Assembly: GCA_977017645.1 (NCBI GenBank)
Contig: OZ360222.1
Span: 208,196,001 to 208,260,000, forward strand
Reading direction: 5' to 3'
Origin: Torpedo marmorata
Lineage: Eukaryota
Length of the DNA: 64,000 nt
The translations under genes and the position numbers were made by a program. Of this stretch, positions 1 through 55,455 are shown one piece after another. Below the pieces are notes generated by a model. The model saw nothing but the letters and a program-made list of their open reading frames with translations, made no database searches and was not told the DNA's origin. Position 1 is the stretch's first letter; every line of letters starts with the position of its first letter.

Positions 1-80
1 ATTCCAAATACATGTGATATATTTCCCCCCCCTCCCACCCTCCCCTCCCCAACCCCCCAGCACTATTCTAAAAAAAAATA

Positions 81-2351
81 TTAGTTATAAAGAAAAAAAA
101 AAGAAAAGAATTGAATAATAAAGAAGTAAAGAATTAAAGTGAGGAGAAAAACATTGTTTACTGTTGTTTCCTTTGTTTCTGTTTGCTCCTTTTCCAATTC
201 CTTGTTTCTGTTATGGATATGCAAAATTCTAGGATGTTTCAAATTGCATACGTTACAATTAATTCGCTTCTCACAGTTTTTACTGATGTGCCCTTTACAC
301 AGACAGCTGAAACATATTCCATTTTCCTTTAAGAAAGCGATCTTCTCCTTATGTTCCTTCTTTTCCAATCGTAAACACATTTCCAAAGCATGTCCACCTT
401 TACAGAACAAACAACTCTTTTCATCAGGCAAACTTTCCTTTTCCTTATTTACTTTGTCCTTTTCTTTATTTATAACTGATACATTAGTAGCAAAAGTACT
501 CCTTTTCAATTTCGGACTAGGCTGTGAGTTAGACCTCCTTACATCTTTGCCCATTGAATTATCTCTGGTATTTCCATATAGTGGATCTGTTTCAACGTAC
601 ACCTGTTGTTCAAGAAAATTTACCAAATCCTTTAAGGTAGCTTTTCGACCGTAATTTACTTGTAAATCACAAGCCAAATTTCTCCACCTATTCCATAACT
701 TGTAAGGTAATATTTCTAAGATGATTCGCATATTACTATGCACTTCAAGCTCACGAATATTATCGATATCTTCCATAGCATTACAACATCCTCTTAAAAA
801 TAGAGTATATTCTTGCAGAGCCTTTACATCATTTTGTTTTATTGATGTCCATTTAAGAGCTTTATCTATATAAGCTAAAGCAATTCGATGCTTGTTGCCA
901 AAATGTTGTTCCAGTAAAGCCTTAGCTGTGTCTAATCCTCTTTCTGATGACATTTGTTGAAAACTCTTTACCAGTTCTTTTTGATGTCCCTTTGTGAACA
1001 TTTCCAAATAATAAAGACATTCATCACGATCTTGACATTTATTTTCAATATTGCGTTTGAAAGATTTCATAAATGATTGATACTGAAGTGGATCACCATC
1101 AAAAGTTTGTATCTCTTTCTTGGGTAAAGAAGAGAGAGACTGTAACTGAATCAATGATGTAGCAATTTCATTTTGTCTTCCCTTGGATGACAATACATTG
1201 CTCTGTTCACCATCTCTTGTTGCAGGTAATGTATCTGGAAACCTCACTGGTGTAGTTTCTTCCATATTTCTGATGCTTGACTCAAATAACAAAGAAGCTG
1301 CTTCGTTCGACCGAACCCAAGCCGCAGCTTTGCTTTCAGATGTTACCACTGGTACATGTGACTCAATACCAATATGCTCTTGAAAGGTTTGTCCTTGTAT
1401 ATGCAAGTTTTGTATCCTTGGTTCTAAAATATCTATCCTTTTGGTTGGTTTCTTTTCCTGTGACTCCTTTTTTAAATATGACCTTTTATTATCAGACACT
1501 TTCGATAATTTACTTCTAGCACCAGATATCATTGAGCCTTCTATTGCTTTCTTTTCTGCCTTGGCAATAGCAATGTTTGCTTCCAGCTCCTGCTGTTCTT
1601 TTCTCTGCCTTAGCTGCTCCTTCTCTTGTCTTAGCTGCTCCTTTAGCTGCTTCTCATTTTGTCTTAGCTGCTCCTCCTCTTGTCTTAGCTGCTCCTTTAG
1701 CTGCTTCTCATTTTGTCTTAGCTGCTCCTTTAGCTGCTCCTCCTTTTGTCTTAGCTTCTCCTTTAGCTGCTCCTCCTTTTGTCTTAGCTGCTCCTCCTCT
1801 TGTACTAAAATATATTTATCCTTAAGCGTTTTTAGTTGTGCAAGAAGAGCGGCCAATTTAACATCAATCTTTGTACGTGACGATGCAGAACTTGAAGTAT
1901 GAGAAACTTTGGAGCTAAAACCAGAACTTCTTTTGCTTCTGCTTTCAGCATTTGAGACACTGTCACTTGCTTGTATTTCGTCCTGCAGTTCATATGTTGT
2001 CTTCATACTTACCTCTTTATCCAATTCGAATTGTATATCCTTTGCATCTTCAACCTCTTCAATTTCTTCATCATTTTCTTCATCCTCTTCATTTGGTGAC
2101 ACAATTTCAGCCATTTCCACGTTATCTTCTTGTTCATCTAATGAAGCTGCCTCTTCATCCTTTGCCAGCTTCAATCTTGCGATGAGAACCTTTTTATTTC
2201 CACTTATGTCCTTTTTCAGTCACTTCAATTCTTCTTTAATATCCGCAACCTTCATGTCTTCAATACGTTGGTCCTCAATAGCAACATCAGCGGTTGCTGC
2301 GTCAGCTGCTGATACATCAGTGGCTGCTGTATCAGAGGCTGCTGCGGCCAT
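81..2351 (-). pseudogene. BEL/Pao retrotransposon gag with an N-terminal SAP-like domain; one in-frame TGA (2220-2222); 3'-truncated, no pol
   Basis: ORFs 2220..2438 and 81..2174 share a frame. Read from ATG 2351 through the TGA: MAAAASDT...IEDMKVADIKEELK*LKKDISGNKKVLIARLKLAKDEE. This is followed by an acidic tract, a coiled coil, a Pao-gag (DUF1759-like) motif LPKKEIQTFDGDPLQYQSF and the triple Zn knuckle CLFCKGGH..C / CFSCLCKGH..C / CNVCNLKH typical of BEL/Pao Gag. The frame runs into T-rich non-element sequence at about 140. Confidence 0.8.
1600..1803 (-). repeat. Tandem coding repeat (21/33-nt units) encoding an (E/K)EQL(K/R)Q coiled coil inside gag
   Basis: Recurrent ttagctgctcct units; the protein reads EEEQLRQKEEQLKEKLRQ... 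Confidence 0.85.
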
Positions 2352-2805
2352 TTTACTCGTCTTGTTCCACTGTCCTTCAAGCATACACAACACTAGCCAA
2401 ATCAACAGTCCCCAATGGACCAGCGGCAGCAATTCCAATCTGTGTTCTTACTTGCCAAAGATACACAGGAGTCCACAGACTTATGCCTACCACTTCAAAT
2501 GACTGTAATGTGCTGCTATTCACAAACGAGTTTCAACCACAACATCCGTCAATAATATAGCTGATTTTCCAAAAATGGTTTCTCCAACGTATTTATAGTA
2601 CACTTTACTATAAGATTTGAAGCTTTAAATCCCTCTCTGGCTGTTGCTCATGGCAGATGGATGTGGATTACAAACTGCCCCCAACTCGAGGCATCTCCAA
2701 GATGGCCGCCATTTTATTTAAAAAATCAGTCCAAAGCACAGAGAGATTATTCTATCTTCTTTCCTTCAATTTTCTGTTCCAAACATCTACTTTTATTGAC
2801 TATAT

Positions 2806-3405
2806 TATGGTGACTTCGATCCAACAATAGTCACCTGGAGGCTAAGTGAGATACTTGTCTTTGACGCGTTTCAATTAATTTACCAACAAAGTCCCATATG
2901 TTCAAAAACTTTATTTACACACGTGACTTGCAGTAATCTTCAATGACTTAATATAAACAGTTCTTGAAAACGATGTATAATGAGTTCCTTTAAATGATTC
3001 CTTTGACTGTAGTTAGATGTTCAATTAAACGACTTTAAACCACAAAGTAACTAGTTAAGTTCAATGAAACAATGTATGAAACGTTCTATGAAACGGTCAA
3101 TAAAAGATATGGCGATCTCACTCACCCTCCTACGTCGCCATCTTTTTCCTATTCTTTCCGATTCGCGCATGCTCCATCGCTCCTATTTCACTGCGCACGC
3201 TCCACCGCGCACACTACATCTCCCACACTACACCGCGCACAATGACGTCAATTCCAGACTGCGCATGCGCCCGTCGGCACTCCAGCGCATGCGCAGAGAA
3301 CTAAATAGGCCGAGGACTGCCTACAGACACCGCGACTCCTCCATAACACGTCGAGGCATCGGAGCACCGCAACCAAGGTAAGTAATTAAGCCTACGGCTC
3401 TTACA
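2806..3405 (-). mobile_element. 5' LTR of the BEL/Pao element
   Basis: On the minus strand it starts TGTAAGAGCC (3405), carries AATAAA near 2910 and lies upstream of gag. It aligns end to end with the solo LTR at 4974-5555. The 2806 end is uncertain by about 3 nt. Confidence 0.8.
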
Positions 3406-3730
3406 GATGGCGACGGAGGAGGGTGAGTGAGATCGCCATATCTTTTATTGACCGTTTCATTGATGGTTTAAAGTCTTTAAAGTCATTTCATTGAACATTT
3501 AAATACAGTCAAAAGAATCGTTTAAAGGAATATATTAAACATCGTTATCAAGAACTGTTTATATTTTGTTTAAAGAAGATATTAATGTCATTGAAGATTG
3601 CTGCAAGTCACGTGTGTAAATAAAGTTTTTTGAACCTAATGGACTTGTTAGTAAATTAATTGAAACGTGTCAAAAACAAATATCTCACCTAGCCTCCAAG
3701 TGACTATTTGTTGGATTGACGTCACAATAG
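3406..3730 (+). mobile_element. Partial LTR of the same BEL family in the opposite orientation
   Basis: 3406-3460 (gatggcgacggaggagggtgagtgagatcgccatatcttttattgacc) is the near reverse complement of about 3094-3142, and similarity continues to the LTR end (gtcacaata, about 3729). Confidence 0.8.
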
Positions 3731-3732
3731 TA

Positions 3733-4177
3733 TGGCTGGAGAGTGCCCAGATGGAAGATAAGGTGTTGTTCCTCCAATCTGCGGGTGGTCAGGGTGGGAT
3801 GGTGCAAAAGGCCATGGACAGACATGTGAGTGTGGGAGTGTGACTCAGAATTGAAATGGTTGGCTACTAGGAGGTTGCTGTGGTTGCGGATGGAGAGGAG
3901 GTGCTCAGCGAAGCGATCTCCCAATCTGCGACCGGTCTCTCCGATGTAGAGAACGCCACAAAGGGAGCACTGGATGCAGTAAATAAATCCTGTGGATATA
4001 CAAGTGAAGTGTTGCTTCACTTGAAAGGCCTGTTTGGGGCTCCGGACCGTGGTGAGGGAGGAGGCGTGGGCGCAAGTGTTACACCTCCTGCGGCCACCGG
4101 GGAAGGTGCCGGGGAGGCGATAGGTGGGGAGGGATGAGTGCACGAGGGAATCACGGAGGGAGCGGTCCCTGCGGAAT
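3733..4177 (-). mobile_element. Penelope-like element fragment (GIY-YIG endonuclease)
   Basis: ORF 3685..4143 contains FTCISTGFIYCIQCSLCGVLYIGETGRRLGDRFAEH...VANHF, a GIY-YIG nuclease of Penelope type. Confidence 0.9.
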
Positions 4178-4289
4178 TCATGACTTCTTGACTGCCTCTG
4201 GTGGTATAATGCTGGCCTTGTTTCCAGGTTACTGGAACTAGATCACTGTCCACTCTCACTTATGTTCTGCCATGTTAATGGTGCAGTGA

Positions 4290-4720
4290 AATGCAAACAA
4301 AAAGTGTGGATGCTGAAATCTGAAATTTACAAAAAGAGAATGTTGGAAATACCCAGTAGTTCAAGTCAACATCTACAGAGAGAGGAACGGAGTTAATATT
4401 TCATTTTGATCTGAGATCTTTTATCTGAGTTTTGAGGTAACTGAGATGATAAACAGGAAACTCTGGAAACACTCAGCAGGTCAGACATGTCAGTGGAAAG
4501 AGAAACAGAATTAACGTTTCAGATCCGAGACCCTTCATCGGAATCGTTTCACTTTGTGCTGATGCTGTCTGATCTGTTGAGCAGGATTTTCTGTTTCTTT
4601 TTCAGAATTTCAGCAGCTGGAATTTCTTCTTTAATTTTCATTTTAGGTTAGCTCTGCTTCTTGCCACCTGCTTACTCCATCACCTGCTGAGTATCTTCAC
4701 TATTTTCATTTTTTGGCTAA
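4290..4720. repeat. Nested fold-back remnants of Penelope-type terminal repeats
   Basis: Arms ...actcagcaggtcagac... and ...gctgtctgatctgttgagc... flank an HHR-like centre (aacgtttcagatccgagacccttcatcgg). Confidence 0.55.
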
Positions 4721-4973
4721 AATCGTGCTGGTTTTGTTGATAACAGCTCTGCTTTAGTTGAAAGTGTATCATTCTGAATCTACGGAGACCCCATTGCCTC
4801 TTCATTCTTAGTAAGTTTTGTGGAAAAGATGTAGTTTATTTATTTTTTTATTTCTCTAGGTACCACTTGACATTTCAATTTACTACATTAATATTATTCT
4901 GCTGTTGTTCACCTGTTTACAGATCATGCCCAAGGTCATTCTGAAGTTCCTGAGTTGCCTTTTTCATACCCAT

Positions 4974-5555
4974 TATAGTGACTTCAATCCAACAAATAGT
5001 CACTTGGAGGCTAGGTGAGATATCTGTTCATGACGCGTTTCAATTAATTTACTAACAAGTCCAATAGGTTCAAAAACTTTACACACGATGACTTGTAACA
5101 ATCTTCAATGACTTAACTATCTTCTTTAATGAAATATAAACAATTCTTGATAACAATGCTTAACAACGATTCTTTAAAACGTCTTTAAACTTCCTTTAAA
5201 ACGATTCTTTATAAATTCCTTTAAACGTTCCTTTAAACGATTCTTTCCAACGCTCCTTTAAACGGTCAATGAAAGCTATGGCAATCTCACTCACCCTCCT
5301 CTAGGTCGTCATATTCTTATAATACTTCTTCTCCTGATTAACGCGCATGCTCCACCGCGCATACTCCACCCACTTCCACATTGCGTATGCTCCAGCCACT
5401 TACCCACTGCGCATGCGCCCGTTGGAACTCCCGTGCATGTGCAGAGTACTCAATATGCCAAGCATGGCCTACTAATCTCCGTGAGTCCTCCAAAACCCGC
5501 TGGGCCCATTGGAATGCCGCGATTAAGGTAAGACACCAAATCTATGGCTCTTACA
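4974..5555 (-). mobile_element. BEL/Pao solo LTR with 5-bp TSD CCCAT
   Basis: Homologous to 2806-3405. Flanked by CCCAT at 4969-4973 and 5556-5560. The empty site (catacccatgttctggcagg) survives in the duplicated copy at about 6512-6531. Confidence 0.9.
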
Positions 5556-5804
5556 CCCATGTTCTGGCAGGTTTGTGTTGTCTGCAAAGTTGATCATTTC
5601 CTGCAAAATCTTCAAATGCCTGGAAGCACCTCACTCAAACTTAACGTCCATTCTGATTTGTCACTTTTTTAAAAAAAATCCTATCAATTCTTATGGATAT
5701 CTCTGAGTTCCACCCTCGCACCTCAATCCAGCTTTGAGTTAATAATTTTACAGTGTTTCCTGTGAAACTTCAGTCAAGATTTGGGTGGCCGCTTCCTAGA
5801 TGGT

Positions 5805-6473
5805 TGTGTTGGGAAGAGTATCAGGTTCGGTGGGTTCACAGAGAGACGAGTCTGGACACAAGTGTTACAATCACACGTAACTTTAATTAACACATGGGAG
5901 ACAAGCAGGGGAGAACGTTAAACGGTACTCGATTACTATTTCACTTAAGCAACGATATAGACATTCACCTTGAGCTAGGTTGGACTCCGACAATAGTGAA
6001 CCTATACTCGTCACGCTCACACACTTGAGTACAAACACTACAAACAGGGACTCTTACACACACGTGGTTCCCGGTACCAATGGGGGTGCGGCTCTCTGCA
6101 AATATTGATCTATTGCAATACTACGGCTCAGCTTCAGTGTAGTGCACACCTTACCCGCGACACTTCCAGCGATGTCCACAGTAGCGACCTGGCGTGGAGC
6201 GGTGTCCGGGATTTTGACCATGAGGCAGAGAGAAAGAATGGGCTATGCATCAATGTTATATACAGAGCTAATCTGTGCTTCTAGCCAAATATGACCCGAG
6301 GTGATTTAAATTAGCCAACGGCAAGGTGTGCACTAATGGGTGGCCAGAGTCCAACCTTGATTGACAGGTGATGTGACTTCCGAATAAGTTTCAGACGGGG
6401 AGGACACGTGACCACCCGCAATACACACATTCCAGTCAGGCAGGGAGGCCACGTTTCCTCCACACACAACACA
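5805..6473 (-). mobile_element. Solo LTR (probably Gypsy-type), 669 bp
   Basis: Termini TGTGTTG...CAACACA (7-bp inverted repeat, TG...CA rule). ATTAAA on the minus strand near 5882-5887. No coding sequence. Confidence 0.7.
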
Positions 6474-6837
6474 GGCCCAAGGTCATTCTGAAGTTTCTGA
6501 GTTGCCTTTTTCATACCCATGTTCTGGCAGGTTTGTGTTGTCTGCAGAGTTGATCATTTCCTGCAAAATCTCCAAATGCCTGGAAGTACCTCACTCAAAC
6601 TTAACAAGTCCATTCTGATTTGTCTCTTTCTTTTAAAAAAATCCCATCAAATCTTAAGGATATGTCTGAGTTCCACCCACACACCTCAATCCAGCTTTGA
6701 GTTAATAATTTTACAGTGTTTCCTATGAAACGTCAGTCAAGATTTTGGTGGCCGCTTCCTAGATGGAGGAGGATAACCAGGATCTTCCCCTGGTTGTTGG
6801 CATTGACTGAGTTATTGTTGTACAGCTTTTCAAATAT

Positions 6838-7130
6838 ACGGTACAGCCTTTTGGCCCACAATGTCCGCAACAAATATATGTCAAATTAAACTAAATCTCC
6901 TGCCTGCACATGATCCATACCCTGCAATGCCTCCATATTCATGTATCTATTGAAAAGCCTCTCAAACGCTATTATTGCATCTGCTTCCCTCATTGGCAGC
7001 CTGTTATTGGCATCTACCACTCTCTGTGTAAATGACCTTCCTTTGCACATCTCCTTTAAAATTGGCCCTCTCATCTTAAAGACATGCCCTCAAGTATTTA
7101 ACATTTTTACCCCAGGAAAAAGATTCTGAT
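6838..7130 (-). mobile_element. CR1-type LINE 3' fragment
   Basis: Degenerate CR1 ORF2 C-terminus (FTQRVVDANNRLP...AFERLFNRYM) plus 3'UTR. Confidence 0.75.
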
Positions 7131-7364
7131 TGTAAATATACTTTAATTAATTCTATTGTGTTAAATGAAATGCTGTTACTCGATTCCAATTGTCAGTGCT
7201 GTTTGTCATAATTTTGAGAACTTATGCACATCAGCCTGTTTACAAAATGCTGGGGTTCTTCCTGACCCCCAGTCTATGTTCATTGACATTCAGATAATGA
7301 TAGTCAGTGCCTTACTAATTTCCTCCCTGGTCTCGCAGCACTCTGGGATAAATACAATCCATCC

Positions 7365-7600
7365 CTGGTGGTTTGAAGGAAGGGTGTTTTTTTTACACAG
7401 AGAACGGTTGATATCCACTGTCAGAGGAGATGGCGGAGCAGATACAATCACTAAGTTCAAGAGATATTTAGACAGGCACTTAAAAGACAAGACATAGAAA
7501 GATGTGGCCTTAATGTGGATGAATGATGTTGGGCAAAAATGTTTGCACAATGTGGTGGGCCAAATGGCCTGTTTCCATGCTGTTCAACTCGATGACTCTT
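7365..7600 (+). mobile_element. CR1-type LINE 3' fragment
   Basis: ttttttacacagaga...gcagatacaatcactaagttcaagagatatttagacaggcac...gggccaaatggcctgtttccatgctgt, the typical CR1 3' end. Confidence 0.75.
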
Positions 7601-7764
7601 AAGAAACACAGAAAACTGCAGCTGTTGGAATCTATGGCCAAACAGAATCTTCTGGAAGAACCCAGCTGGTCTAGCAGCATCAGTGGGAGAAAAAAAGTGG
7701 TTGACATTTCGAGCCATAACCCTTTATTGAGACTGGTAGAAAAATATTTCCCCTTGTCTTCACC

Positions 7765-8680
7765 TCCCACCCCACCAGCCCCTGTATCCAACATATTATC
7801 CTCCCAATTTCCGCCACCTGCAACACGATCCCACCATCAGATGCATCTTCCCCTCTCTGCTTTCTGCAGGGTCCGACCGGTCCCTCTGGCATTCTCTCGT
7901 CCGCTCATGCTTTCCCACTAATTGCCCCATCGGTACCCTATGACCGCAAGATATGCTACACTTGCACCCACACCTCCTCCCTCACCACCATTTGGGGCCT
8001 CAAACAGTCCTTCCAAGTGAAGCAACACTGTGATCATCTACTTCATCTGGTGCTCCAGTTGAGGCCTCCTTGGAGAGACTGGACGCAGACTGGGAGACCG
8101 TTTCATTGAGCACCTTCGCTCTGAGTGCCCAATGGCCAACATTTTAATTCCACACACCATTCCCACACCGCCATGTCTATCCATGGCCTCATGCACTGCC
8201 AAACCAAGGCTGCCTTCAAATTGGAGAAGCAACACTTATTATTTCATCTGAGCACTCTCCAACCAGATGGTATTAACATCAACCTCCAGTTTCCATTAAA
8301 CCCCTCCCCTGGGTCTCTCTTTTTCTGATTCCTTTCCTGCAGCTCCCCACCCCTTCCCTCTCCATTCAGAGAGCTACCCCCTCCCCTATCACTTCTCAGC
8401 TTTTTTTTCTTCTATCCTACCACTCATATCCACCTATGACATCTTATCTGTTAGCCCCTGCTCTTCCCCCTGCCCATTCTTCCCTTCTCTCCTCTCTTCC
8501 CCTCCCCCACTTTTTTATTCAGGCACTGTCTGCTTTTTGCTCATACCTTGATGAAGGGCTCAGGCCCGAATCGTTGGTTATCCTTCACCTCCTATAGATG
8601 CTGTGTGACCTGTTGAGTTTCTCCAGCACTTTTGTGTATTGCACTGCAATCCCTGCGTCTGCAGACTTTCTTGTTTAAAA
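7765..8680 (+). mobile_element. Degenerate Penelope-like 3' fragment with terminal HHR-like motif
   Basis: Translates in pieces to HFNSTHHSHTAMSIHGLMHC...KLEKQHLLFHLSTLQPDGINI. Pyrimidine-rich 3'UTR; HHR-like motif at 8542-8581. Confidence 0.8.
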
Positions 8681-9292
8681 CCATTCTTTTTCTCCCGCTG
8701 ATGCTGCTTCACCCGTTGGTTCCTCTATGACTCTTAAACTCAACCTTGCCTCTTGCAATCCATGGATTCTGCATGACCTGCGGAGTTCCTCCAGCACTTT
8801 TGTGTATTGTTTCTGTTCTCCAGCATCTGCACACTTGTTTAACTCTTTTAACCTGATTTGTTAATCAAGTGATGATGAATTAATATGGGCTCTGTTAAAG
8901 GGTAAATATTTTTATCCTGATTTTCAGAATACTGGTGACCTGCAGCAGATCCAGGGTGACAGACTACGCCATGACATTGGGATGTTGGTATCACCCGTTG
9001 CCCAAACAAGAGATACCCGAGTACATTCATGCCCGTACAAGTAAAGCTGAAGCACGTTTCACACCTTAACCTTCTTGGTGGCAGGCTGCATCCATTTTTT
9101 CACTTTCATGTTTTAAAACACCGATCGCCAAATCTTTATGTGGACTATTCCAACCAAAGCCACGAGATGGCAATATTAACGTGTGCAAGGCTTCACATTC
9201 GTGTTCGAACCACAAACACCAGCACTTTGTGTGTGTGAGAGAGGGGGCGGGTAAGGGAAAGAAAACGGCGCCTCTGTTTAGGAACAGATATA

Positions 9293-9293
9293 C

Positions 9294-9325
<32 letters not shown>
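9293..9325. repeat. (TG)n/(TA)n microsatellite
   Basis: tgtgtgtatatatatatatatatatatata. Confidence 0.9.
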
Positions 9326-11149
9326 GTTCTATAATTGCCTCCCGGATAAATACGCACAGCAATATACATATGTTTATCATTCTTACATTTCCCAAACTAT
9401 ATCCTCGAGTTGGTACATCAGTAGTAAATGAAAGCCTGAGAATGAATGGGAATTAAAGAATTCTGATCGATAGGAAAGAATTGCAGTTAAACTTCTCAGA
9501 ATTGAAGAGCTGCTTTACAATTAATATTTTAAATTTAAAAAAAAAACATCACTTCTGCGATTTATATCTGACAAAGGACGGAGTTCACCTGCGATCCAGG
9601 TGAACACTCCGGCTGTTTATTTTAGTGTTGATTTCATAATATATTTATGTATAAATATTATTCATAACAAATATTTATATACTATCGGTCGCAGATAAGT
9701 ATTTAAACCATGCAAATCTTTATTAAAATTTGAGCACTAAATAAATAAAATGGGTTTATTATTGATGTCTTTGGGAAGGTTTTTATTCTGGTCTATTTCA
9801 CTCTACTTGATCACAATGTAAATTCGTTGAAATCTCTCCCAGCCTGTCACATCCTAACTAATAATTTCAGTGTCGAAGTTCATTTTGACGCTGTTACTCA
9901 ATACCTAAAAACATCACCACGCGGATGGCCCACATGAAAACTAATTACACAGAATCAATATTTAATCACTGGCTTCAGCTCCTTGGATTCCGTAACAGCC
10001 AGCGCACAGATTCTTTTAAAAAATCTACTGCAATACATTAGTGTCCCCCCCGTCCCCCCACTCCGCCTCACGTATTCGTCAGCTCGGGTCATTGTAACTT
10101 CACCTTCTCCAAACTTTTTTTAAAAAATAAAATATCAGTGTGGTTTGGCAACCGAGGAGAAATTGACCTGAAATTAACACGTATTGTGGAGAATTAATTG
10201 TATTTGCCTAAACATAAACGGAGCAGGTCTGGGAGTATTTAAATTCGTGGCTATTTAATTTTATTTTATTAATAGCTGGAATTATTGAATTGCAGCTGAT
10301 TCCTTTGGCGGTAATACCCTTAGTGCGTGCGATCCTCCATTCCCCATGAAGCTGCTCCCTGGGTCCCTGAGAAGGATCGGGTTGCGGTGAGCAAGAGGAG
10401 CCCTTTGCCTTGTGTCTCATCGTGGGATGAATTTCAAGCCTCCGCCACTCCGCGCTCAGATCACATAAAGGTTTAAACATTTTAACTAGAGGTTATTGGC
10501 ATAAATATTTCATAAAGTGAGGAGGAGATATTAAATTGCACTATTGATTTTAGCATCACAACAGAATTGCATTCGTTAGCCCCCGAAGACTAATTGGGTT
10601 GTTTAAGGAGGCATTGCTGATGTTGGAATATATTTTTAATTAATGGGGGTTTTGTTTCGTGAACACCAGAGTTCATCAAATGAGTAAAAAGTCGGGGGAA
10701 GCATGTAATAACGATTAAACTGAGAGAGTAAGTACTCTGAATGGATACTGGACCCCCTTCTCCCCCACCTCTCTCTCTCTCTCTCTCGGGAACATCTTTA
10801 TTAATTCCTCGGTAAGAGTTTCACAGCATTAACGCGCAACGATGATTTAATTCCCGGTTTTACATGGGAAACGCGACAGACACATATAATTCCGGCTTTT
10901 GTGTTGTAAATAGGGGTGAAATTGTCCGGTAAAATCTCAGACACAACAAGCACCCTTTTCCTTTTTTTTCGAAGTAATCTTTAACTTTTTTCACCAACAG
11001 ATTTTTTTTAAAATGTATAACTTAACGGGTCCAAACATTGTCCAACCTGACTGCGGTGGCAAAATATTGTTCCAAATACAGTTGATATATATAGGCATCG
11101 ATAAACCCTTGCTGATCAGTTTGATTCGAAATCTTGATCCCATGTTACC

Positions 11150-12169
11150 TATAGTTATCCCCTCCCCGCCCCCTAGCCGAAACTCCTCTTTTTCTCTCTA
11201 TCTCAGGCTATATATATATTTGTCCATTTTCCTCTTTGTCTTCCCCATTTTATTAAGGGAGGAACGTGTCCCGGTCCACCTTAACTCCAAGCCCCGCCTT
11301 CTGGCCAGGAGCATGCGTAGCAATGATTGGTGGAGGAATAATGGCTGAAATTGATTGCAGACACCAGTATGCAAACTTGTTGCTGGCTTTCCGGGGGATG
11401 AGATCAGGCTGTGTTCCTCTAGCCAGCAGTAGTGATCGAGACAGAGAGAGAGAGGCGGACAGAGAGAGAGAAAGAGAGAGAAAACAGACAGTGCTAACCT
11501 CATACTCAGTTACATGTGTTGGATCAACATTTTTACAAGGGAACGCGAATTGCAACTAGAATATTCCAGTCAGGATTGTTTGCTCCGGGGATTTCAAGTC
11601 AGTGGATGTCCGCAAGTTTGGAACCAGTGTGAGCGGGCAGTGGATACACCGACCGAGCGTCTTCTGTCCGATCTCGTCTCGCCGCCTTCTCTGGACTATC
11701 GCTGGACAACAGAGAGAGAGAAAAAAAAACTCAACCCCCTGTTTTCCCCCGAGTTGAACAGCGCTGGGAGATTTGCATCCCTCCTGCCAAAATCAAGGAC
11801 AGACTGAGAAAGAGAGGAAATTCAGAATAAATAATAAAATCCAAGAATTATTTTTAAAGAAAACAATTGCTGATATGAAGGCTGAAATGACATTATTGAG
11901 AGAGTGGAATCACAATGTGATCCAGCGCAGGGTGAGTTTCTCTGCAAACGTTTCTCATTGTGTTTGAGGCATTTTTAAAATAATCTTTGGACATTGGAAG
12001 AGACCGGAATCTTTATTTCCCCCCTCCCCTCCCATTTACTTTTATGGTTTTATCTTGATTTGGGGTATTTAAAACCCTTTAATTATTGTATTTTTTGCTG
12101 TATTTGAGACTGCGAAGATAGCTCCGGGGGCTCGGCTGTCATGCCCTATTGATCGGGGCTTTGGGAAGT
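11150..12169 (+). promoter_or_regulatory. Putative MN1 promoter and long 5'UTR
   Basis: Transposon-free, CpG-containing sequence directly upstream of the MN1 ATG, with an inverted CCAAT (attgg about 11326), a GC-box-like ccccgccc (about 11164) and GA repeats. The TSS cannot be placed from sequence. Confidence 0.45.
12141..12152 (+). promoter_or_regulatory. Minimal upstream ORF ATG CCC TAT TGA (MPY*)
   Basis: Directly visible. It ends 17 nt before the MN1 ATG at 12170, is out of frame with MN1 and has G at -3. Confidence 0.6.
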
Positions 12170-15100
12170 ATGTTCGGGCTGAATCAATTCAGCAGAAGCG
12201 GTGGCCAAGGAGCGGAGAGAAACTTCGGCCAAGCTACCTTGGGTATGTCGGGGCATTACAAGGGCCCGAGTTTTGCCAGCGGGGGCGGCAGTTCCATGGG
12301 AGAACAGGGTATCAGTGCCCTGAACGAGCCCCCGATATTGGGGATGGGCATGGGCCCGGCTCTAGGTGGTGACCAGTACGCCTTCCACGCCCGGGCTCAC
12401 TCGGAGCTGCACGGAGCCGGGGCCATGTCACAACCGCAGCCGCCGCCTCCTCCCCCTCCTCCACCCCCTCCTCCTCCTCCTCCTCAGACCCAACCTCAGC
12501 CCCAACCCTCGGCAGCGCACGGTTACTTCCCCAACGGGCACCACCACCATCACCCGCATGCCCACCACCATTTCAGCGGCAGCTTCTGCGGATCTGAACC
12601 CGGCCCTTCCTGCCTTCACGGGGGGCGTCTCCTGGGTCCCCACGGCTACAGCAGTGGACAGCAGCCAGCTTTTGGAGAAAGTTATGATCCCATGGCCGAG
12701 AATGCTGGTGGAGGGGGAGGCGAAGCCTTTGCACAACAGCAGCCGGCCCCGGGCAGAGCAAGTAACCTGACGGACTACCGCCAACACCATACCCCTTCAT
12801 CTAATCCCACGCCTTGCCTCCCTCTGGACCAGTCACCCAACCGCGCTGCTTCATTTCATGGACTTCCATCTTCCTCCTCCTCCGAGGCACACGGACTGGA
12901 GCAGCGTCGCCTGCCGACCCAGCCGCCCGTGGACTCGATGGAATACAACTATCAGAGTGACCCTCCCTTTGACATGCCTGTCTTTTCTCCCTCTGAGTCC
13001 AACGCCCAGCTTCCTCATTTCGGCGCCGGAAGGCAGGTGCCCAGCAGCAACTTTCCTGCCAGCCCCGTTATGCCCAGGACCCCGGGCTTGGTGGGCATGG
13101 GTAAAGTCCACCCTCCGCAACAACATGGTGGTGTGTTTTACGAAAGGTTTGGGAATGCTCGAAAGATGTCTGTGGGCATGGAGCCCGGGGTCGCTGCCAG
13201 GAATCCTCTGATGCAGCAACAGGCAGGTTTGCTTGCTCGGCAGAACTCTTGCCCCCCAGCGATACCAAGGCAACAGCAAGCGGAGGCTGGCGCTCCTAAC
13301 TCCAGTGTGCAGGACAATGGGCCGATGATGCAGAATCAGCATGCTCCGTTTGAGTACCCCATCCAAAGGTTAGAGAACAGAAATATGCACCCTTACAGCG
13401 AGGCGATGTTCAACATCCAGCATCAGCCGAATCAGAGGCTACAACATTTCGATGCCCCTTATCTCAACGTAGCGAAGCGGCCCAGGTTTGACTTTGCCAA
13501 CAATCACAACGTGGACAATTGTGCGACTTGGAGTGGTACCAGTTTGCATAACGCCAGTTTGGAAGACCATTTGTCACCATCCGCCTACCCTGGGCTTCCC
13601 AATGAGTTTTCGCCACCTGGTCCGGAAGGGTTCCCTCACGGTCCCCCTCTGCAACACCCGGGGACCGATCAGCAGTCCTTGCAGCAGCGCCAGAACATGC
13701 TGATGATGTTTAAGCAAATGGTGTCGCGGAACCAGCGGCACCGAATGAGGCAATCGGATCTCCAGCAGTTGGGCCACCATGGTGATGTCAATCAAAACAG
13801 CATGGCGCACAATAACCAAGTGGGTACCATGTCCCAGCCGAACTTTGAGCGGGAAAGCGGCGGCAGGATGTCGAATTTCGATCACCAGAACCCACCCATG
13901 GCTCAGGAAAACTCGTGGTTTGCAGGTCCTCACCCGCCCGGAGATATGCTTCAGAGAAGGATCGGCGGGTCTGGCGTGGCATCTGAGGGGAGCCCCCACG
14001 AATCTGTCCAGATGAACTTGCAGCAGAATGGGTCAAACATGCTGTTCAGGACAGGTGGGAATGGACTGGCTATGCAGGAGCCAATGAGAATGCCAGGCGA
14101 GGGACATGTACAGGGTTTGCACTCTCCTGGGATGCACTCACAGTTTGGCAGTAATATGGGAAATGTCTCCCAAATGCAGTCTCCAAGTGCCAGCATCGGG
14201 CTCTCGAACACCTCAAGCGACAGAAGAGCCGGCCCCGATTTTCCTGGTCCCCAGATTGGCGGACAACCGGGCTTTCCCTTTGGGGGACCGAGCCGGTCGG
14301 CCAACCCCCACAATAACCCTGCTGGAGTCCCTCCATCTCCCGGCAGTTACCCGGCCCAGTCCGAATTTCAGCCCAATCAACGCCCCTCTATGAGCAAGAT
14401 CGGTTCTCTGTCCTTGGGCTCCTTCAGTAAGCCTGGTGCCAAGGACAACACCATCTACGGTCAAAGCTGCCTTGCCGCCCTCTCCACGGCTTGTCAGAAC
14501 ATGATCGCCAGTTTGGGAGCCCCGAACCTCAATGTCACGTTCAACAAGAAGAACCAGAACGAAGGGAAACGCAAACTGAGTCAGACCGAGCAGGACGGTG
14601 GGAGCGGCGGCCCGACCAATGGCGGTGGGACTGTCGGTGGCACCGCCACCGGAAACAGTGGCAACGGGCCGGAATACTTCCAGAGCAACACTCCTCAAAA
14701 CAGCCAGATGGGGGTATCTGGCAACGGGAGCGGGAAGCTTGCTGCGCCCGCGCCCCAAAACTGTATCCAGGGCCAGAACCAGCCGACACAGGTGGAATGC
14801 AACCTCTCCCCAAACTATGGGCTGGAGTCCGTTCCAACTGAAGGCAAAGGACAGACGGGGAGAGGGAGAGGGAGGAGGAAAAGAGACAGTGGCCACGTTA
14901 GCCCGGGGAATTTCTTTGACAAGTATTCAGCTGAGAACGTCAACCCGGTGGTCAGTCCCGGGTCCCAGGGTCAGTCGACACACGCTGGAGATCGAGGTGG
15001 GATCACGCAGGACAAGTCCCTCACCTCTCCATCCTGGGCGAAAGGGAATGACCTGCTCCTCCCAGACCAACCCGACCTCATGTCCTCCCTCGACAGTGGG

Positions 15101-15755
15101 ATCCAAAGCGTGACAAAGTCCGACGGCAGTTCTCCACAGGTCGACTTCCCCGACGATGTCACCAACAATTACGGGAACGAGGACGAGGTGTCGTCGAGTT
15201 CCGACAACAACATATCCAAATCCACGCGGTTAATGACCAGTTCCCCAAAATTGCAGCGCGTGGACCACGGTCTGAAACAGATGGGTCACGCCATGCTCAA
15301 CGCACACCCCAACAGCAACACTACCTCCAACGCAGGGCCTGTCACTGACAGCTTTGGGCTTAGCAGCAGCGGGAGTGGGCATCCCGGCACCCCGGGCATG
15401 GAGCAGGTCCGAACTCCAACCAGCACGTCAACGCAGGACGAGATTCACCCGCTGGAAATCCTGCAAGCACAGATTCAGCTTCAGCGGCAACAGTTCAGCA
15501 TATCCGAAGACCAGCCTCTCGCCATGAAGAACAAAAAAACTGAGTGCCCCGGTCAGAATGGGGACACAGAACTGGCCGCTTGTGGCACGGACAATAGCAA
15601 AGCTGCCATCAGCACAATAGACATTGAGTCACTGATGGCGGAGCATAACTCTACCTGGTACATGCCCAGCGACAAGGCCATGATGGATCCACAGGATGAG
15701 GACAAGCAAATGGCACCGTGGGAAAAGGCCAAAACTGCAAGTACCAACAAAGAAG
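12170..15755 (+). CDS. MN1: MN1 transcriptional co-activator (meningioma 1), coding exon 1
   Basis: Starts MFGLNQF. Contains MN1 hallmark motifs [119 protein letters not shown] and APWEKAK. Ends at donor AAG|GTAACT (GT 15756-15757), phase 1. Confidence 0.96.
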
Positions 15756-18700
15756 GTAACTTCTTAATTTCTGTTTTACACTGATCCATAATCCACCTTC
15801 CAGTCGCCAAGTCGTCGGTTTGATCAGAGCTTTTGAAGTTTGAAAGCTGTCCATTTCCCAGTGCAGTTGAGGATAAGAAAGCTTTGAGGGAGTCACTGCG
15901 GCTTGTACTCTCCTGGGGTAGGCGGTTAGTTCTGTCAGGTAAACAGGCGTTGGAGAGAGGAAGGACAGTTTATGGTGTAAGGGCAATTTATGGTGTAAGG
16001 GAAGTGCGATCACGCTTTAAATTTAGAGGACAATGCTCGTTCTCGCAGTGAGCAAACGTTTTCTTTAATGAATTGACAATTGACTAGCGGATTAGGTTTC
16101 GGAAGGTTCTCCTACTTTCATGGGCAGCAGTGAAAAATTCATTGCAGTTTCTTACAAACAAAACCATCTCAATTCCTGGAGGGCCGGGGAAGTATACTTC
16201 ATCTATGATTAATGTTTACTTATTGTGTGTGAAATGAAATTGGGTCTTTTAATACAGCTTCTAAACACTGAGGTTGTACTTCAGCAGGCCTCCCGGGCTT
16301 GTGTAACCCCAAAGTGGGTGGTTAAACCTTCCGCCTGCAACATTGGTTAAATTAACCCTTTAATTACCGCCCTAAGGGTTGTCGCGTTTATCAGGGGCGA
16401 GAGAAGAACGCTGGGCTGCCCCAGGTTGGACTTAACAATAGTCTGAGCGATACTCATACACACACCAACAGGTTTACTTCAAATATATTGATTAGAAGTT
16501 TTGTTTTGTAGTGTTATGTACGCGACTGGTACGAGAGGGGCGAGGGGTACCTAGACTCAGCGGAGTGCACCGGATAACAAGGTTATCGTCAGACAAAAAT
16601 CCTTTGCTCATTTAGGTTCAAGACACTCAGTTGTAGAATAGTCTTACCCAAGAGTTGTTGACGCTAGGACTATTATTCCGTTCTATACCATCATCGTTTT
16701 GTTAGTATCGGTTTTATAATTCAATACATTTTTCAAGAGCTATATTGTAAAACAAAGCTGCATTGGTTTATTCCGCTTTTGTTCTTTCTCAAGAATAATT
16801 AATTTGCCTCGGTTTAAAGCTGACTTCCTCCGGCTTGCGGGCGAAACTACACAACAGGTCCTTGCAGCTCTGTGTTGCTCTTGCTTGACTGCCAGCTCAC
16901 ATATGTGGTTTGCCTGCCCGGCTCCTGACACAGACACATATCGCACTGATAAGGTTTCTTGCACAGATTTAGGAATTGGTTGGGAGAGGAGGGTGAGGAT
17001 GGTGGGGGTGGAGGAGTGGGAGGGTAGATATGAGCCCAAGAAGTTGGCACTGGAATCATGCGATCGCCACTGTCTCTCCTGTTGTGAAAGTGTAAAGGTG
17101 GCCCTCCTGGTAGTTCCTTTGTTCTATTTAATACTCAGCACAGGAGGGTTGTGATCTAAGGCGGGCTTGTTTAACATGCAAGGGCTGTGAAGGGGAGACG
17201 CACATCAGCATTCTCAGAGCTTCGCGCCTGCAAGCATATAAATTGGTTTGTTGAGAATCTTCTTTCCATCTTTAAATGTAGTTGCACGCAGTCCTTCCTG
17301 TCCTTTCGTGTTCACAGCAGTTAAGGCCAACAGGATCAATAACTAGTTAGCAGAATTCCTGTACAGAGCTGCATTTTGGGTTTGGCTGAGGAATGAGTTT
17401 GAAATAAACCTGCATCATGTGGACTGATTGACCTGTAACAATCTCTATTGATGAACTGCTTTGTTTGCGTGGTTCCTGCGGTTTTACACCCCCACCCCCA
17501 ACAAACCCTTGCCCAAAAAGACCTACACAAATTCAGAATTACACCTACATCCAGAATAATCTTGTCTCAAATTTACAGATGTACAATTCAATTACTTATG
17601 TATTTGCACATTGCAGTCACAAGAGTCCTTTCTGTTGGGACTAATAATATCTGAAGACATTCTGCTCCAACTCTCTCGTTTAAATTTTCATGTTAATACA
17701 CACAGTCGGTCATATAGGTACACAGAGCTATAGATATCCTTACACACTCAATTAGAAATATTAACCCAGCTACACTCTTAATCTAAGTGGTCAAACACTC
17801 ACACTTCCAATGCATAAATACAGACGGTTGGAGCTGCATCAATTTACACTCAGGTTCACTCACACGCAGCTATTTACATTAAACACTATTTCAGCTACAC
17901 ACACTCACCCCAACCCCTGCATTTGTGTTCTGTGCTGCTCTTGTATCCTCCTTGATTTTTCCGACCTTCCTATCAAGGATACAGAACATCTTAAATGTTT
18001 TGTTAACTAGCCGGACATATTTTGTAAATGATAGATAATAGTCCATTGGTTAATCAGACCCACCATGAAAATATCATGATTGTGAGAGCCCACTCTCCTG
18101 CTTGGGAAAGTTATGTTAATTTTTCTGAATGGAATATTTTTAGATTTTAGTTTAATTGGAAGAAGGTTCATGGAAAAGTGTAACATAAAAGTTGATTTCG
18201 GTGTAACCAAGGGATGGAAGTGGTGTTTTTGTTATTGTCCTTTCAGCTTAATTCCAATTGACCTGGGGTTGTAGGATGTTAGTACTTCTGAATGGCGCTT
18301 TCTCAAAGAGTAACATTGCCAGAAACGCGGCGTAAGGTTGCAATCAAAATCCAAACCAGCCCACATGTAAAACTTTACTCGTTCTCTGCAACTAGGAAAC
18401 TGAATAATTTCTTAGAAAAAAGTCACAATCATTTCTTGTAAAAAAAAATCACAATTTATTCTCGCTCTCTATCGAAATTCACACATAAATAAACAAGCGC
18501 ATTCCCTAATAATTTAGAACCAGTCATAACTCAGCTGGCTTTACTAGTGGGCGCCTTCTCATAGCCGCACCTGTTTGCGATACAATTGTCCAGCTCGCTC
18601 GTTAGCACTTCCTCCTTTCCAACTTCTTGCAATATTAAAATGCTTTCAAGTTGAAAGTGTTGAGACTATTCAGTATTTATTCATCGGAGGGCAGAGTCGT

Positions 18701-48850: not shown

Positions 48851-50027
48851 AACACAAATGCTGGAGAAACTCAGCAGGTCAAACAGGGTCTTTTATGTAG
48901 CAACGGTAGAAATACATAACCGACGTTTCGGGCTTGAGCCCTTCATCAAAGTATGAGAAAATGCCGGCAGGCGTCCGAACAAAAGAGTGGGGGGGGGGGA
49001 AGGGGGAGTGGCAAAGGCAGGAGATGATAGGTGGAGAAAGGAGGGAGGGGACAGCAGCAAAGAGGGGGAGGAGGGATGGCTGGGTGGGTGTAAAAAAACA
49101 GGAAGGACAGGTGAGGGGAAAAGACAAGCAGGTTTAGTGGAAAGCAGAAAAGTCAATGTTAATGCCATCTGGCTGGAGAGTGCCCAGACGGAAAATGAGA
49201 TGTTGTTCCTCCAATTTGCGAGTAGTCTGGGTGGGATAGTACATAAGGCCATGGACAGACATGTGAGTGTGGGAGTGTGACCCGGAATTGAAATGGTTGG
49301 CTACTGGGAGGTCGCTGTTGTTGCGGACGGAGAGGAGGTGCTCAGCAAAGCGATCTCCCAATCTACGACCGGTCTCGCCGATGTAGAGAAAGCCACAAAG
49401 GGAGCACTGGATGCAGTAAATAAGTTCTCTGGATGTACAAGTGAAGTGTAGCTTCACTTGAAAGGCCTGTTTGGGGCCCTGGACCGTGGTGAGGGGGGAG
49501 GTGTGGGCGCAGGTGTTGCACCTCCTGCGAGCACAGGGGAAGGTGCCGGGGGATGCGATGAGTGGGGAGGGATGAGTGCACGAGGGAATCGCAGAGGGAG
49601 CGGTCCCTGCGGAAGGCCAAGAGGGGAGGAGAAGGAAAAATGTGTCTGGTGGTAGGATCCTGTAGTAAGTGCCGGAAATTCCGGCGGATAATGTGTTGGA
49701 TGCGGAGGCTGGTGGGGTGGTAGGTGAGGATGAGGGGGATTCTATGTTTATTGCGTCTGGGGGCAGAGGGGGCCAGGGCAGATGAGCGGAAAATGGAGGA
49801 AATGCGGGTGAGGGCTGAGTTGATGGTGGTGGAGGGGAAGCCACGTTTGTGGAAGAAGGCAGACATTTCAGAAGATCTGGACTGGAAGACCTCATCTTGG
49901 GAACAGATGTGGCAGAGACGGAGAAATTGAGAGAAGGTGATGGAATCCTTGCAGGGGACAGGGTGTGAGGAAGTGTAGTCCAGATAGTTGTGGGAGTTGG
50001 AGGGTTTGTAGTAAATGTCAGTGGAAA
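48851..50027 (-). mobile_element. Penelope-like element, 5'-truncated (RT thumb/linker + GIY-YIG + 3' terminus)
   Basis: Frameshifted ORFs 49134..50138 and 49363..49866: SAFFHKRGFPS...RIPLILTYHP and LIYCIQCSLCGFLYIGETGRRLGDRFAEH...LGTLQPDGINIDF. Confidence 0.92.
48915..48955 (-). ncRNA. Putative minimal hammerhead ribozyme (U3 variant) in the Penelope 3' end
   Basis: Minus strand reads CAUACU-UUGAUGA-A-GGGC(UCAA)GCCC-GAAAC-GUC-GGUUAUG. Stem II is intact, stem III is the loopless palindrome ACGU and stem I pairs with one bulge. Confidence 0.6.
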
Positions 50028-50029
50028 GC

Positions 50030-50335
50030 TCAACACGTTTTGCAACCAGCGCACAAAGGAAATTAATGTGCGCACAAAGTAGTTCAAAGTATAGAATAAA
50101 ATCTTAACTAAATACATTACTTCGTAGAATGCAATCATAATTGTATTATATTAAAACATGCCAATACAGTTTTATTAGCCATAAGAGAGAGGCTGTGCCA
50201 AAATTATCTTGAAAGAATTTCAAGTTTACATTTGCACAAGCATTCAGTGCACACATACTTTTGTCACAGGAAAAAAATTTGCACAACATAAGATTTTTTG
50301 CACACACTGACTACTAAAAATTAGAGAAAACATTG
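50030..50335. mobile_element. hAT-like MITE fragment (one end only)
   Basis: Ends ...aaaaattagagaaaacattg with internal gcgcac repeats. The other TIR was not found. Confidence 0.45.
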
Positions 50336-53449: not shown

Positions 53450-55455
53450 GAAACACGAAACTCTGCAGACACTGTGATTGTAGTAAAAAACCCTCTGAAA
53501 TGCTGTTCTCAGCCAGTTTTCCATAGGAGACAAAGATATATTGTTGATGTTTCGGGCCTGAGCCCATCTTTAAGGAATAAGCAGAATGAGCAAAAAAACA
53601 GGAAATCTTAGAGTACAGACAATGCTGGCTGGGGGAGGAGTCCAGACCAACAAAAGGTGTTAATTGGATATGATAAGGGGAGAGGTGAGAATTGATTATG
53701 TCTGTGCGAAAGGTGACGGAAAAGAGGGGAGAGACAGACAGAGCTGGGGGAAGATGACAGGCGTGGGTGGGAGGGTATTAACGAACGCCAGAGAAGTCGA
53801 TATTAATGCCATCCGGTCGGAGGGTACACAGTAGGAAGATGAGGTGTTGTTCCTCCAGTTTGCGGGTGGTCTCAGTCTGTCAGTGCATGAGACCATGGAC
53901 AGACATGTCAGCAAGGGAATGAGATGGTGAATTGAAATGGATGGCCATTGGGAGATCCACGCTATTGCGGTGGACAGAGCCAAGGTGCTCAACAAAGCGA
54001 TCGCCCAGTCTGCGCCCAGTCTCTCTGATGTGGAGACCACAACGGGAGCACTGGATGCAGTAGATGACCCCTGCAGATTCACAAGTGAAATGTTGCTTCA
54101 CTTGGAAGGACAGTTTGGGGCCCCGAATGGTGGTGAGGGAGGAGGTGTGGGCGCAAGTGGAGCATCTCCTGTGGTCACAGGGGTAGGTACCAAGGGGATG
54201 ATTGGTGGGGAGGGATGAGTCAAGGGAGTCACGGAGGGAGCAGTCCCTGCGGAAGGCAGAGAGGGGAGGAGAGAGGAATACGTGTCCAGTGGTGGGATCA
54301 CGTAATAGGTGGCAGAAATGGCGGAGGAGGAAGTGTTTTATGCGTAGGCTGGTGGGGTGGTAGGTGAGGACAAGAGGAATTTTGTCCTTGTTGCACATGG
54401 GGGCGCAGGGGGCCAGGGCAGATGTGTGGGTAATGGAGGATATGCAGGTGAGGGCCAAGTTAATAGTGGTAAAGTCACATTGTTTGAAGAAGAAGGACAC
54501 CTCTGTTGATCTGGCATGGAAGTCCTCGTCCTGGGTGCAGATGCGATGGAGACGGAGGAATTGAGAGAATGGAATGGAATCCTTACAGGGGACAGGGTGG
54601 GAAGAGGTGTAGTCGAGGTAACTGTGGGAGTTGGTGGGTTTGTAGAAGATGTCTGTCGAGAGTTTGTCTCCCGAGATGGAGACAGGGAGATCGAGGAAAG
54701 AGAGAGTGTTGCTGGAGATGGACCAAGTGAATTTGAGGTCAGTGTAGAAATTGGCAGCAAAGTGGATGAAGTCGATGAGCTCATCATGGGTACATGAGGC
54801 AGCACCAAAGTAGTTATCGATGTAGCGTAGGAGGTTGAGGGGCCTTGCCTGTGTAGTCTTGTAGCATGGATTGCTCCACGTAGCTAACAAAAAGGCAGGC
54901 ATAGCTGGGGCCCATGCGGGTACCCATGGCTACCCCTTTGACCTGGAGAAAGTGGGATGAGTCAAAGGAGAAATTATTGAGGTGAAGACAAATTCTGCCA
55001 GCCGAAGGAGGGTGGTGGTGGAGAGGGACAGGTTGGATCTATTGTCCAGAAAGAAACGAAGGGTTTTGAGGCATTCGGTATGGGGGATGTAGGATTGGAT
55101 GTCCATGGTAAACATGACGTGATCGAGTTCAGGGAACTGGAAGTTGTTGAAGTGATGGAGGGCGTGTGAAGTGTCCCGGATGTAGGTGGGGAGGGACTGG
55201 AGCAGAGGGGACAAAACAGAGTCAAGGTAAGCGGAGACCAATTTGGTGGGGCAGGAGCACGTGGACACGATGGGTCTGCTGGGACGATTAGGATTGTGGA
55301 TCTTGGGTAAAGGTAAAGGTAAAGGTAAAGGTTCCATTATTGTCACGTAATACTACATTTAGAATGTAACATACATGAAATTCTTTAATTTTTGTCTTCC
55401 GTAAGGCAGACAGAGGGTCGCTACTTTGTCCAGCGCCCCTCAAGGAGGTAGAAAC
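53450..55455 (-). mobile_element. Penelope-like element (RT + GIY-YIG), degenerate
   Basis: PKIHNPNRPSRPIVS...LVSAYLDSVL, LRYIDNYFG, SFLDL, KPTNSHSYLDYTSSHP and VIYCIQCSRCGLHIRETG. Interrupted at 55308-55440. Confidence 0.92.
55308..55440 (-). mobile_element. Short LINE/SINE 3' tail with (ggtaaa)n inserted in Penelope
   Basis: ggtaaaggtaaaggtaaaggtaaaggttccattattgtcacg... Penelope-like sequence appears to resume at about 55441. Confidence 0.6.

Follow-up and report, generated by a model that had tools for sequence, protein, structure and literature searches.

The 64,000-nucleotide stretch of the Torpedo marmorata genome analysed here (assembly GCA_977017645.1, contig OZ360222.1, forward-strand positions 208,196,001 to 208,260,000; the window hereafter) carries near its start, on the minus strand, a dead copy of a BEL/Pao element that is cut at its 3' side ahead of the protease and whose Gag protein begins with a SAP domain. 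From the ATG at 2351 down to position 81, translation confirmed a single frame with one internal stop, a TGA at codon 44 (2220-2222), as a sequence-only reading of this DNA had described; for the protein analyses the frame was translated with an X at this stop. The alanine-rich leader, SAP-like segment, acidic tract, coiled-coil repeats and three zinc knuckles of that reading are likewise all present. The frame is Gag from 2351 to 150, and only its last 23 codons (150 to 81) had to be given up as unrelated flank: the alignment to relatives stops at about nucleotide 150 (residue 734), just ahead of their protease, and contigs from each of four public sequencing runs placed on the region break off with loose ends at 150. 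The hydrophobic 23 C-terminal residues were accordingly rejected as a Gag feature, being flank sequence beyond the break, and no piece of pol was found within the 64-kb window. At the other end, the start codon is uncertain because a further in-frame ATG lies at 2384, 11 codons upstream of 2351 and in a weaker context. The leader that follows consists of 3.9 copies of a 15-nt unit repeated in tandem (2284-2341). Table 1 gives the coordinates.

Homology makes it almost certain that this Gag is of the BEL/Pao type. Residues 390-720 match 38 long proteins with 41-57% identity, all 38 of which contain the Pao family (PF05380). Three Cys-His boxes at residues 647-659, 680-693 and 699-711 read CX2CX3HX4C, CX2CX4HX4C and CX2CX3HX4H and fit the three patterns of Pao/BEL Gag quoted in the available passages of PMC554778; the identity to Pao polyproteins and this triple box bear out the proposal of a BEL/Pao Gag with three zinc knuckles. 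The DUF1759 profile (PF03564), which had been put forward as a check, did not match the copy at E≤1 and is likewise absent from 4 of the 38 close relatives in a precomputed domain list; the assignment therefore rests on homology and on the Cys-His pattern. It could not be confirmed, either, that BEL Gags have PHD as their accessory domain: a simple PHD pattern remained unmatched upstream of the core in 189 proteins, and the literature consulted makes no such statement. With fish-type BEL/Pao elements (Belpaoviridae, Semotivirus; P0002-P0008, of which P0007 is from Pimephales, and P0009 from Sarotherodon) the window copy has in common the core identity of 41-57%, the triple Cys-His box, a long terminal repeat (LTR) of about 600 bp and, at a solo LTR, a 5-bp duplication. 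In those elements Gag continues straight into the protease, whereas the window copy has lost everything from the protease on; the protease, reverse transcriptase, RNase H and integrase missing from the cut copy are present in its nearest relatives and in the SAP-bearing proteins P0104 and P0206. Moreover, the fish-type Gag starts with a predicted three-helix bundle, whereas the window Gag starts with about 115 unrelated residues made up of the repeat leader, the SAP and the acidic linker.

The SAP domain in this Gag is real. Pfam SAP (PF02037) matches residues 30-61 with an E value of 2.3e-7 and 30.7 bits, above the curated cut-off of 23.9, and the isolated 64-residue piece scores 36.5 bits. 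A predicted model of residues 1-205, with an X at the break, reaches predicted local distance difference test (pLDDT) values of 90-98 across residues 21-70 and adopts the helix-extended loop-helix fold of SAP. The top 16 Foldseek rows are all SAP proteins (ERI1, MRTF-A, DEK, Tho1, hnRNPUL1 and Hcc-1), with root-mean-square deviations of 0.8-2.8 Å over 34-54 columns; none of these matches is at E≤0.001, the E values being weak because the domain has just 35 residues. The motif claimed from the letters has thus passed its Pfam check, with model and fold in agreement. The host SAPs MRTF-A/MKL1 (2KVU), hnRNPUL1 (1ZRJ), Hcc-1 (2DO1), ERI1 (1ZBH), DEK (8KD1) and Tho1 (1H1J) have the two-helix fold in common with the window Gag, a likeness confined to the 35-residue domain, and a sequence search of 177,635 solved sequences returned MRTF-A/MKL1 as the only SAP at E≤10. 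The domain has a net charge of +5 (+6 in its C-terminal half), and six of its positions are invariant across 10 aligned sequences.

Table 1. Coordinates of the BEL/Pao copy and of the LTR sequences around it (window positions; aa, residues of the frame starting at 2351)
Feature	Position	Strand	Basis
3' break near 150, followed in the same frame by unrelated flank of low complexity; protease/pol absent from the window	81..150	-	Loose ends in runs, end of alignment
Triple Cys-His nucleocapsid box, aa 647-711	219..413	-	Motif pattern as in PMC554778
Gag core, conserved and with a capsid-like position, aa 386-600; six nearest relatives 45-55% identical	552..1196	-	Alignment
Coiled-coil region, some 58 aa longer than that of relatives after expansion of 21/33/54-nt tandem repeats	1592..1803	-	Repeat finding, alignment
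Ser-rich segment and helix (aa 116-195), the point at which homology with SAP-less relatives sets in (36-44% identity)	1767..2006	-	Alignment
Acidic linker, aa 65-125, net charge -25	1977..2159	-	Charge count
SAP domain, aa 30-61	2169..2264	-	Pfam PF02037 above cut-off; predicted model, fold matches
Stop codon interrupting the SAP domain in frame; lesion of the copy, lacking in most of the family	2220..2222	-	Translation and run contigs
ATG with a strong context, followed by the Ala-rich leader (aa 1-28)	2268..2351	-	Frame translation; repeat finding
5' internal leader; weaker in-frame ATG at 2384	2352..2805	-	Inspection by eye
5' LTR, about 600 bp, TGT...ATA termini, CpG-rich	2806..3405	-	Similarity to solo LTR
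3' part of a related LTR in opposite orientation, abutting the 5' end of the element	3405..3729	+	76% identity to the 5' LTR, 359 columns
Solo LTR, related subfamily, flanked by a perfect 5-bp target duplication (CCCAT, plus strand)	4974..5555	-	LTR comparison

Contigs from 6 of the 7 public sequencing runs listed were placed on the window; their depth is not copy number, run X1 may come from the same sample as the window, and the organisms of the runs need not be five host species. In X1, 216,525 pieces fall on positions 1-4000 and the depth is approximately flat between positions 135 and 2814, the SAP included. On 2100-2370 the share of pieces that continue into unlike sequence is 0 in both X1 (n = 13,355) and X3 (n = 404), and no indel reaches 8% of the depth. 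A one-off chimera was rejected on the even coverage of the SAP stretch and the lack of joins to unlike sequence in these two runs, and it is highly probable that the SAP segment belongs to the family, as had been supposed. The stop is not common to the family, again in line with the sequence-only reading. Another base stands at its site in 88% of the depth in X1, 100% in X2, 98% in X3 and 100% in X5; the single 218-nt contig of X7 is also without the stop, X6 leaves the site uncovered, and about 12% of the X1 depth carries the same stop. Because most of the depth differs there, the stop is a lesion that this copy shares with a minority only, and a family-wide stop or programmed read-through was rejected. 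What holds of the suggestion that the TGA is a deaminated CGA is a point lesion at the level of the copy, which most copies lack (88-100% of the depth in five runs). The leader varies in length: X1 joints show shortened forms, and one contig of X6 is largely without the leader repeat. Loose ends were also observed in X1 and X3 on both sides of 2205-2214, where a more divergent subfamily lies over the SAP loop; given these ends, the family has at least two SAP variants.

A SAP-like start occurs at the same N-terminal place in 14 of 188 BEL/Pao relatives, a set made up of the 38 long close matches and the best 150 of a wider search. These are P0076, P0081, P0082, P0086, P0088, P0089, P0091, P0092, P0104, P0131, P0138, P0160, P0164 and P0182, and the barnacle RefSeq protein XP_043238749.1 is one of them. 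The SAP-Gag is thus not unique to the window's family; the sequence-only reading had noted neither this recurrence nor the cut of the copy ahead of the protease. Of 16 relatives picked by the screen, Pfam placed 9 above its cut-off and 4 below and left 3 unmatched, P0160 being found only by our own profile. That profile was seeded by 12 of the 14 BEL SAPs, which makes the scores of the seeds circular; the window SAP, not a seed, scores 29.3 bits against it. P0104 and P0206 are complete SAP-Gag-protease-reverse transcriptase-RNase H-integrase proteins, and the active ancestors of the window copy presumably made a SAP-Gag-Pol polyprotein of this kind. Like the window Gag, the SAP-bearing Gags have the SAP at the extreme N-terminus followed by a Ser-rich segment, a helix and the Gag core, and lack the three-helix domain. 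They differ from it in that their cores are 30-37% and their SAPs 29-41% identical to those of the window, in their distant position on the tree and in their open frames, some with full gag-pol, whereas the window copy is dead. The SAP is absent from all 38 closest long relatives.

On a tree of 121 Gag cores (15 with and 106 without a SAP), the window Gag nests in starred sets of 5, 19 and 55 rows, in each of which it is the sole SAP carrier. The remaining 14 SAP rows are placed at a great distance from it, in starred groups of 4 and 10 that are weakly joined, and the SAP label needs 2 changes on this tree versus 14.3 in shuffles. Forcing all SAP rows of a 49-row tree into one clade was rejected by the approximately unbiased (AU) test with a p value of 1.35e-64. 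Common descent with the other SAP-bearing BEL Gags was thus rejected on the Gag core, and we hold with good confidence that the window SAP has an origin separate from that group. The homology to the nearest relatives starts at about residue 116 (36-44% identity), and before that point these relatives carry a conserved 110-residue N-terminal domain predicted to form three helices (pLDDT 89.8). No Pfam family matched this domain above its cut-off, and Foldseek returned generic bundles only, none at E≤0.001. A profile of the domain matches 67 of the 106 SAP-less rows and 0 of the 15 SAP rows (Fisher p 1.6e-6, a count that overstates independence, as kin share labels). Because the window Gag nests among SAP-less kin, a single SAP clade is rejected, and the SAP and the three-helix domain are mutually exclusive, the front end of Gag is likely to be an exchangeable slot that was filled by a SAP at least twice. 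In the window lineage the SAP would have replaced the three-helix domain, a direction that we infer only from the nesting because the trees are unrooted quick runs. The three-helix bundle found at the N-terminus of most relatives, as seen in the alignment of P0002-P0039, may be a matrix-like domain.

As donor of the SAP, a host gene and another transposon are both possible. The window SAP is 50% identical to that of MRTF-A over 36 columns and 29-41% identical (10-14 of 34 residues) to 13 BEL SAPs, which suggests a separate source, since the identity to MRTF-A exceeds that to the BEL SAPs. Its sequence score is 25.6 bits against MRTF-A and at most 14.1 bits against any BEL SAP, the query lengths being slightly different. 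When long proteins were searched with nothing but the SAP, there were 10 candidates but no match, a weak result for so short a domain, and an alignment-based SAP search returned eight proteins, seven of BEL type and one unrelated, and no host SAP protein. For two natural SAP-bearing Gags, the ESM Atlas gave no SAP cluster among the rows listed, one row at 0.90 belonging to the SCAN family. Recombination from a SAP-bearing mobile element, be it another branch of BEL/Pao, Ty3/Gypsy, Zisupton or a Penelope-like element, is a serious contender that we nevertheless rate below probable. Indeed, the SAP stands at the same position in the 14 BEL relatives, it is reported in Zisupton and Chlamys in the available sections of PMC8557442, and the profile of 12 BEL SAPs recognizes the window SAP; the identity to the BEL SAPs is, however, lower than that to MRTF-A, and a closer transposon SAP was not found in searches that are weak for a short domain. 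An origin by transposon shuffling would concern the donor only, and it is compatible with a tethering role.

With respect to this role, the N-terminus of Gag has a basic SAP (+5) on a long acidic linker (-25), an arrangement that would place the domain to reach nucleic acid. Some retroviruses have chromatin tethers borne on Gag. In LTR elements Gag forms a particle, the protease cuts Gag, and the new DNA returns to the nucleus (PMC8742986). By analogy with CopiaMBD and the chromoviruses, as presented in the available sections of PMC6673714, and with the Gag-borne tethers of retroviruses, we propose that the SAP would tether Gag, or a particle remnant carrying the new DNA copy, to host chromatin or AT-rich DNA before integration. 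As the main role of the SAP, chromatin tethering is a tentative proposal, somewhat short of probable. The fold matches include DEK on nucleosomes and a Tho1 entry titled S/MAR (scaffold/matrix attachment region) DNA binding; the top one is ERI1, and because it is RNA-bound, RNA binding is equally possible. Alternatively, the SAP might handle RNA or the complementary DNA of the element in the particle, as a chaperone or packaging grip without any chromatin role. ERI1 with the histone mRNA stem-loop as best fold match, the matches to the SAPs of Tho1 and SARNP (Hcc-1), the basic C-terminal half and the known packaging of RNA by Gag (PMC8742986) would agree with such a function, but three intact knuckles already serve RNA binding, other matches (DEK, Tho1) bind DNA or chromatin, and a SAP is present in the DNA transposon Zisupton (available sections of PMC8557442). 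We regard a role confined to RNA or complementary DNA as the main rival to tethering, though an unlikely one.

A more elaborate scenario, in which a host-captured SAP displaced the ancestral three-helix domain in the exchangeable Gag slot, acts as a tether and biases integration to AT-rich or matrix-attached DNA, is doubtful when taken as a whole. SAFB and SLTM have the N-terminal order leader, SAP, acidic tract. The sequence-only reading had called the window N-terminus SAFB/SLTM-like, and the whole module would then derive from the first exon of one of these host genes. Consistent with this, a vertebrate host SAP, that of MRTF-A, gives the window SAP a better score than any BEL SAP does, and homology begins only at about residue 116, so that some 115 residues come from elsewhere. 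However, the SAP searches returned neither SAFB nor SLTM, the best solved match being MRTF-A, and the leader has a local origin as a tandem repeat with a 15-nt unit and varying length; repeats have been expanded by the family in the coiled coil as well. Such a repeat origin explains the richness in alanine without homology to a host leader, with which it is still compatible. Moreover, leader and acidic tract are of low complexity and hold little signal, and a 35-residue domain resolves phylogeny weakly; we consider a SAFB or SLTM donor improbable. Least probable of all is a passenger SAP, fixed by chance in a successful master copy and not needed, for which the lack of a third-position excess among variable sites and the stop in about 12% of the X1 depth could be invoked, though any dead copy can have a stop: the SAP replaces a conserved domain rather than adding to it, a deep and divergent BEL group keeps the same fusion in open frames, and the domain is free of frequent indels and keeps its six invariant positions.

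Altogether, the explanation we prefer is that of a dead copy from an abundant BEL/Pao family with a SAP-Gag, which gained its SAP separately and whose SAP would tether it to chromatin; taken in full, this explanation is the best available and is evenly poised between right and wrong. Several points weigh against it. The placed pieces are at most about 220 nt long, and none connects the SAP to the Gag core in another copy; the protein searches found no intact SAP-bearing protein of the window's own family. There was no sign of purifying selection in the leader and SAP, where 8 of 21 variable places are at third positions (p 0.40), by a codon-position test that is blunt, the best-supported places of the gag frame being equally even (8 of 23). 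Because the gag frame as a whole looked alike, this test is taken to be dominated by decay after insertion. The trees were quick, unrooted LG+G4 runs; that of 121 rows left out 62 relatives in which fewer than 150 residues precede the core and 6 whose match to the core was short, and on the 49-row tree the SAP label needs 3 changes, 2 of them forced. The kinship that inflates the Fisher count, and a top fold match solved on an RNA stem-loop, belong here as well.

The BEL LTR described upstream of the Gag is present, running from 3405 to 2806, and is accompanied by a related solo copy with the 5-bp duplication. The genes of BEL/Pao elements are flanked by LTRs of 0.2-1.2 kb. The 600-bp 5' LTR of the window copy has the termini TG...TA and not TG...CA, and the 3' LTR was lost by truncation. 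Its CpG observed/expected ratio is 1.30, versus 0.43 for the window, and along its length it shows 68.6% identity with the solo LTR (5555 to 4974); with the inverted fragment at 3405-3729 the identity is 76%. All three related LTR copies within 3 kb (4974-5555, 2806-3405 and 3405-3729) end in ATA, not the usual CA. The primer-binding site after the 5' LTR of BEL/Pao elements is for tRNA-Arg or tRNA-Gly (PMC8742986); no TGG-type site adjoining the LTR end was seen by eye in this decayed copy. The inverted LTR fragment is probably an older LTR of the element's own kind into which the element inserted, and a foldback DNA transposon at 2802-3733 was rejected, as this segment resolves to the LTR and the inverted fragment. 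Adjoining the latter, a frame fragment of a GIY-YIG endonuclease at 3685-4242 on the minus strand (Pfam E 5e-4, below cut-off) is probably a Penelope-like element.

Elsewhere in the window, a GC-rich open frame of 1220 codons with Pro, Gln and His runs (12122-15784, plus strand), without a Pfam match, is what we take to be the large first exon of vertebrate MN1. A LINE-type (long interspersed nuclear element) reverse transcriptase fragment lies at 61561-62352 on the minus strand (PF00078 and PF09004). The long open frames at 49134-50150 and 53880-57003 on the same strand are strongly G-skewed, GC-rich and without a Pfam match, and are probably simple-repeat arrays. Rfam on 1-12000 and ARAGORN on the window found nothing. 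Among the proteins examined, P0223, unrelated to the SAP-Gag, has 1781 residues, at least three SAP domains, a phage-type RNA polymerase domain (PF00940) and Rho_N and SurA-like matches.

Host-type readers on transposons have been described in several settings. According to the available sections of PMC6673714, CopiaMBD of a centipede and spiders and the chromoviruses are LTR elements that carry a reader of chromatin or DNA resembling those of hosts, and this reader has been proposed to guide where they integrate; they belong to other superfamilies, their readers are different ones, and tests of binding and of insertion bias were made on them, whereas a role of the window SAP is proposed by analogy, and the MBD of CopiaMBD was traced to a host origin, whereas the window SAP has no traced donor. 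Zisupton DNA transposons and the Penelope-like Chlamys-1_pPol have, as the window element does, a SAP as an accessory domain (available sections of PMC8557442), but they are not LTR elements and their SAP is not on Gag, that of Chlamys being inserted in the reverse transcriptase. No description of a SAP on the Gag of a BEL/Pao or other LTR element was found in the literature searched, in which the slash spelling was unsearchable and whose scope lay outside Repbase, Dfam, GyDB and subscription journals. The whole word SAP is absent from the main text, supplements apart, of PMC3118150, PMC6238403, PMC6673714, PMC3286476 and bioRxiv 10.64898/2026.05.21.726589, and from the passages of PMC554778 at hand. 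Automated Pfam annotation already lists SAP on P0086 and P0104, and SAP with DUF1759 on some public proteins; given these labels, the architecture may be catalogued without comment.

BEL/Pao replication has been described as poorly understood (PMC8742986), and how these elements reach or choose chromatin is an open question on which the present finding bears. Close relatives with either a three-helix bundle or a SAP in the same slot offer a ready comparison for the role of the Gag front end. The existence of at least two separate SAP groups also raises the question of whether an LTR element can target DNA via Gag rather than integrase. The SAP joins the list of host-type readers borne by LTR elements, accessory readers in transposons being a known theme. 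If host capture and tethering were both true, Belpaoviridae would have in the SAP-Gag their first described means of tethering to chromatin, one carried on Gag and convergent with the chromodomains of chromoviruses and with CopiaMBD.

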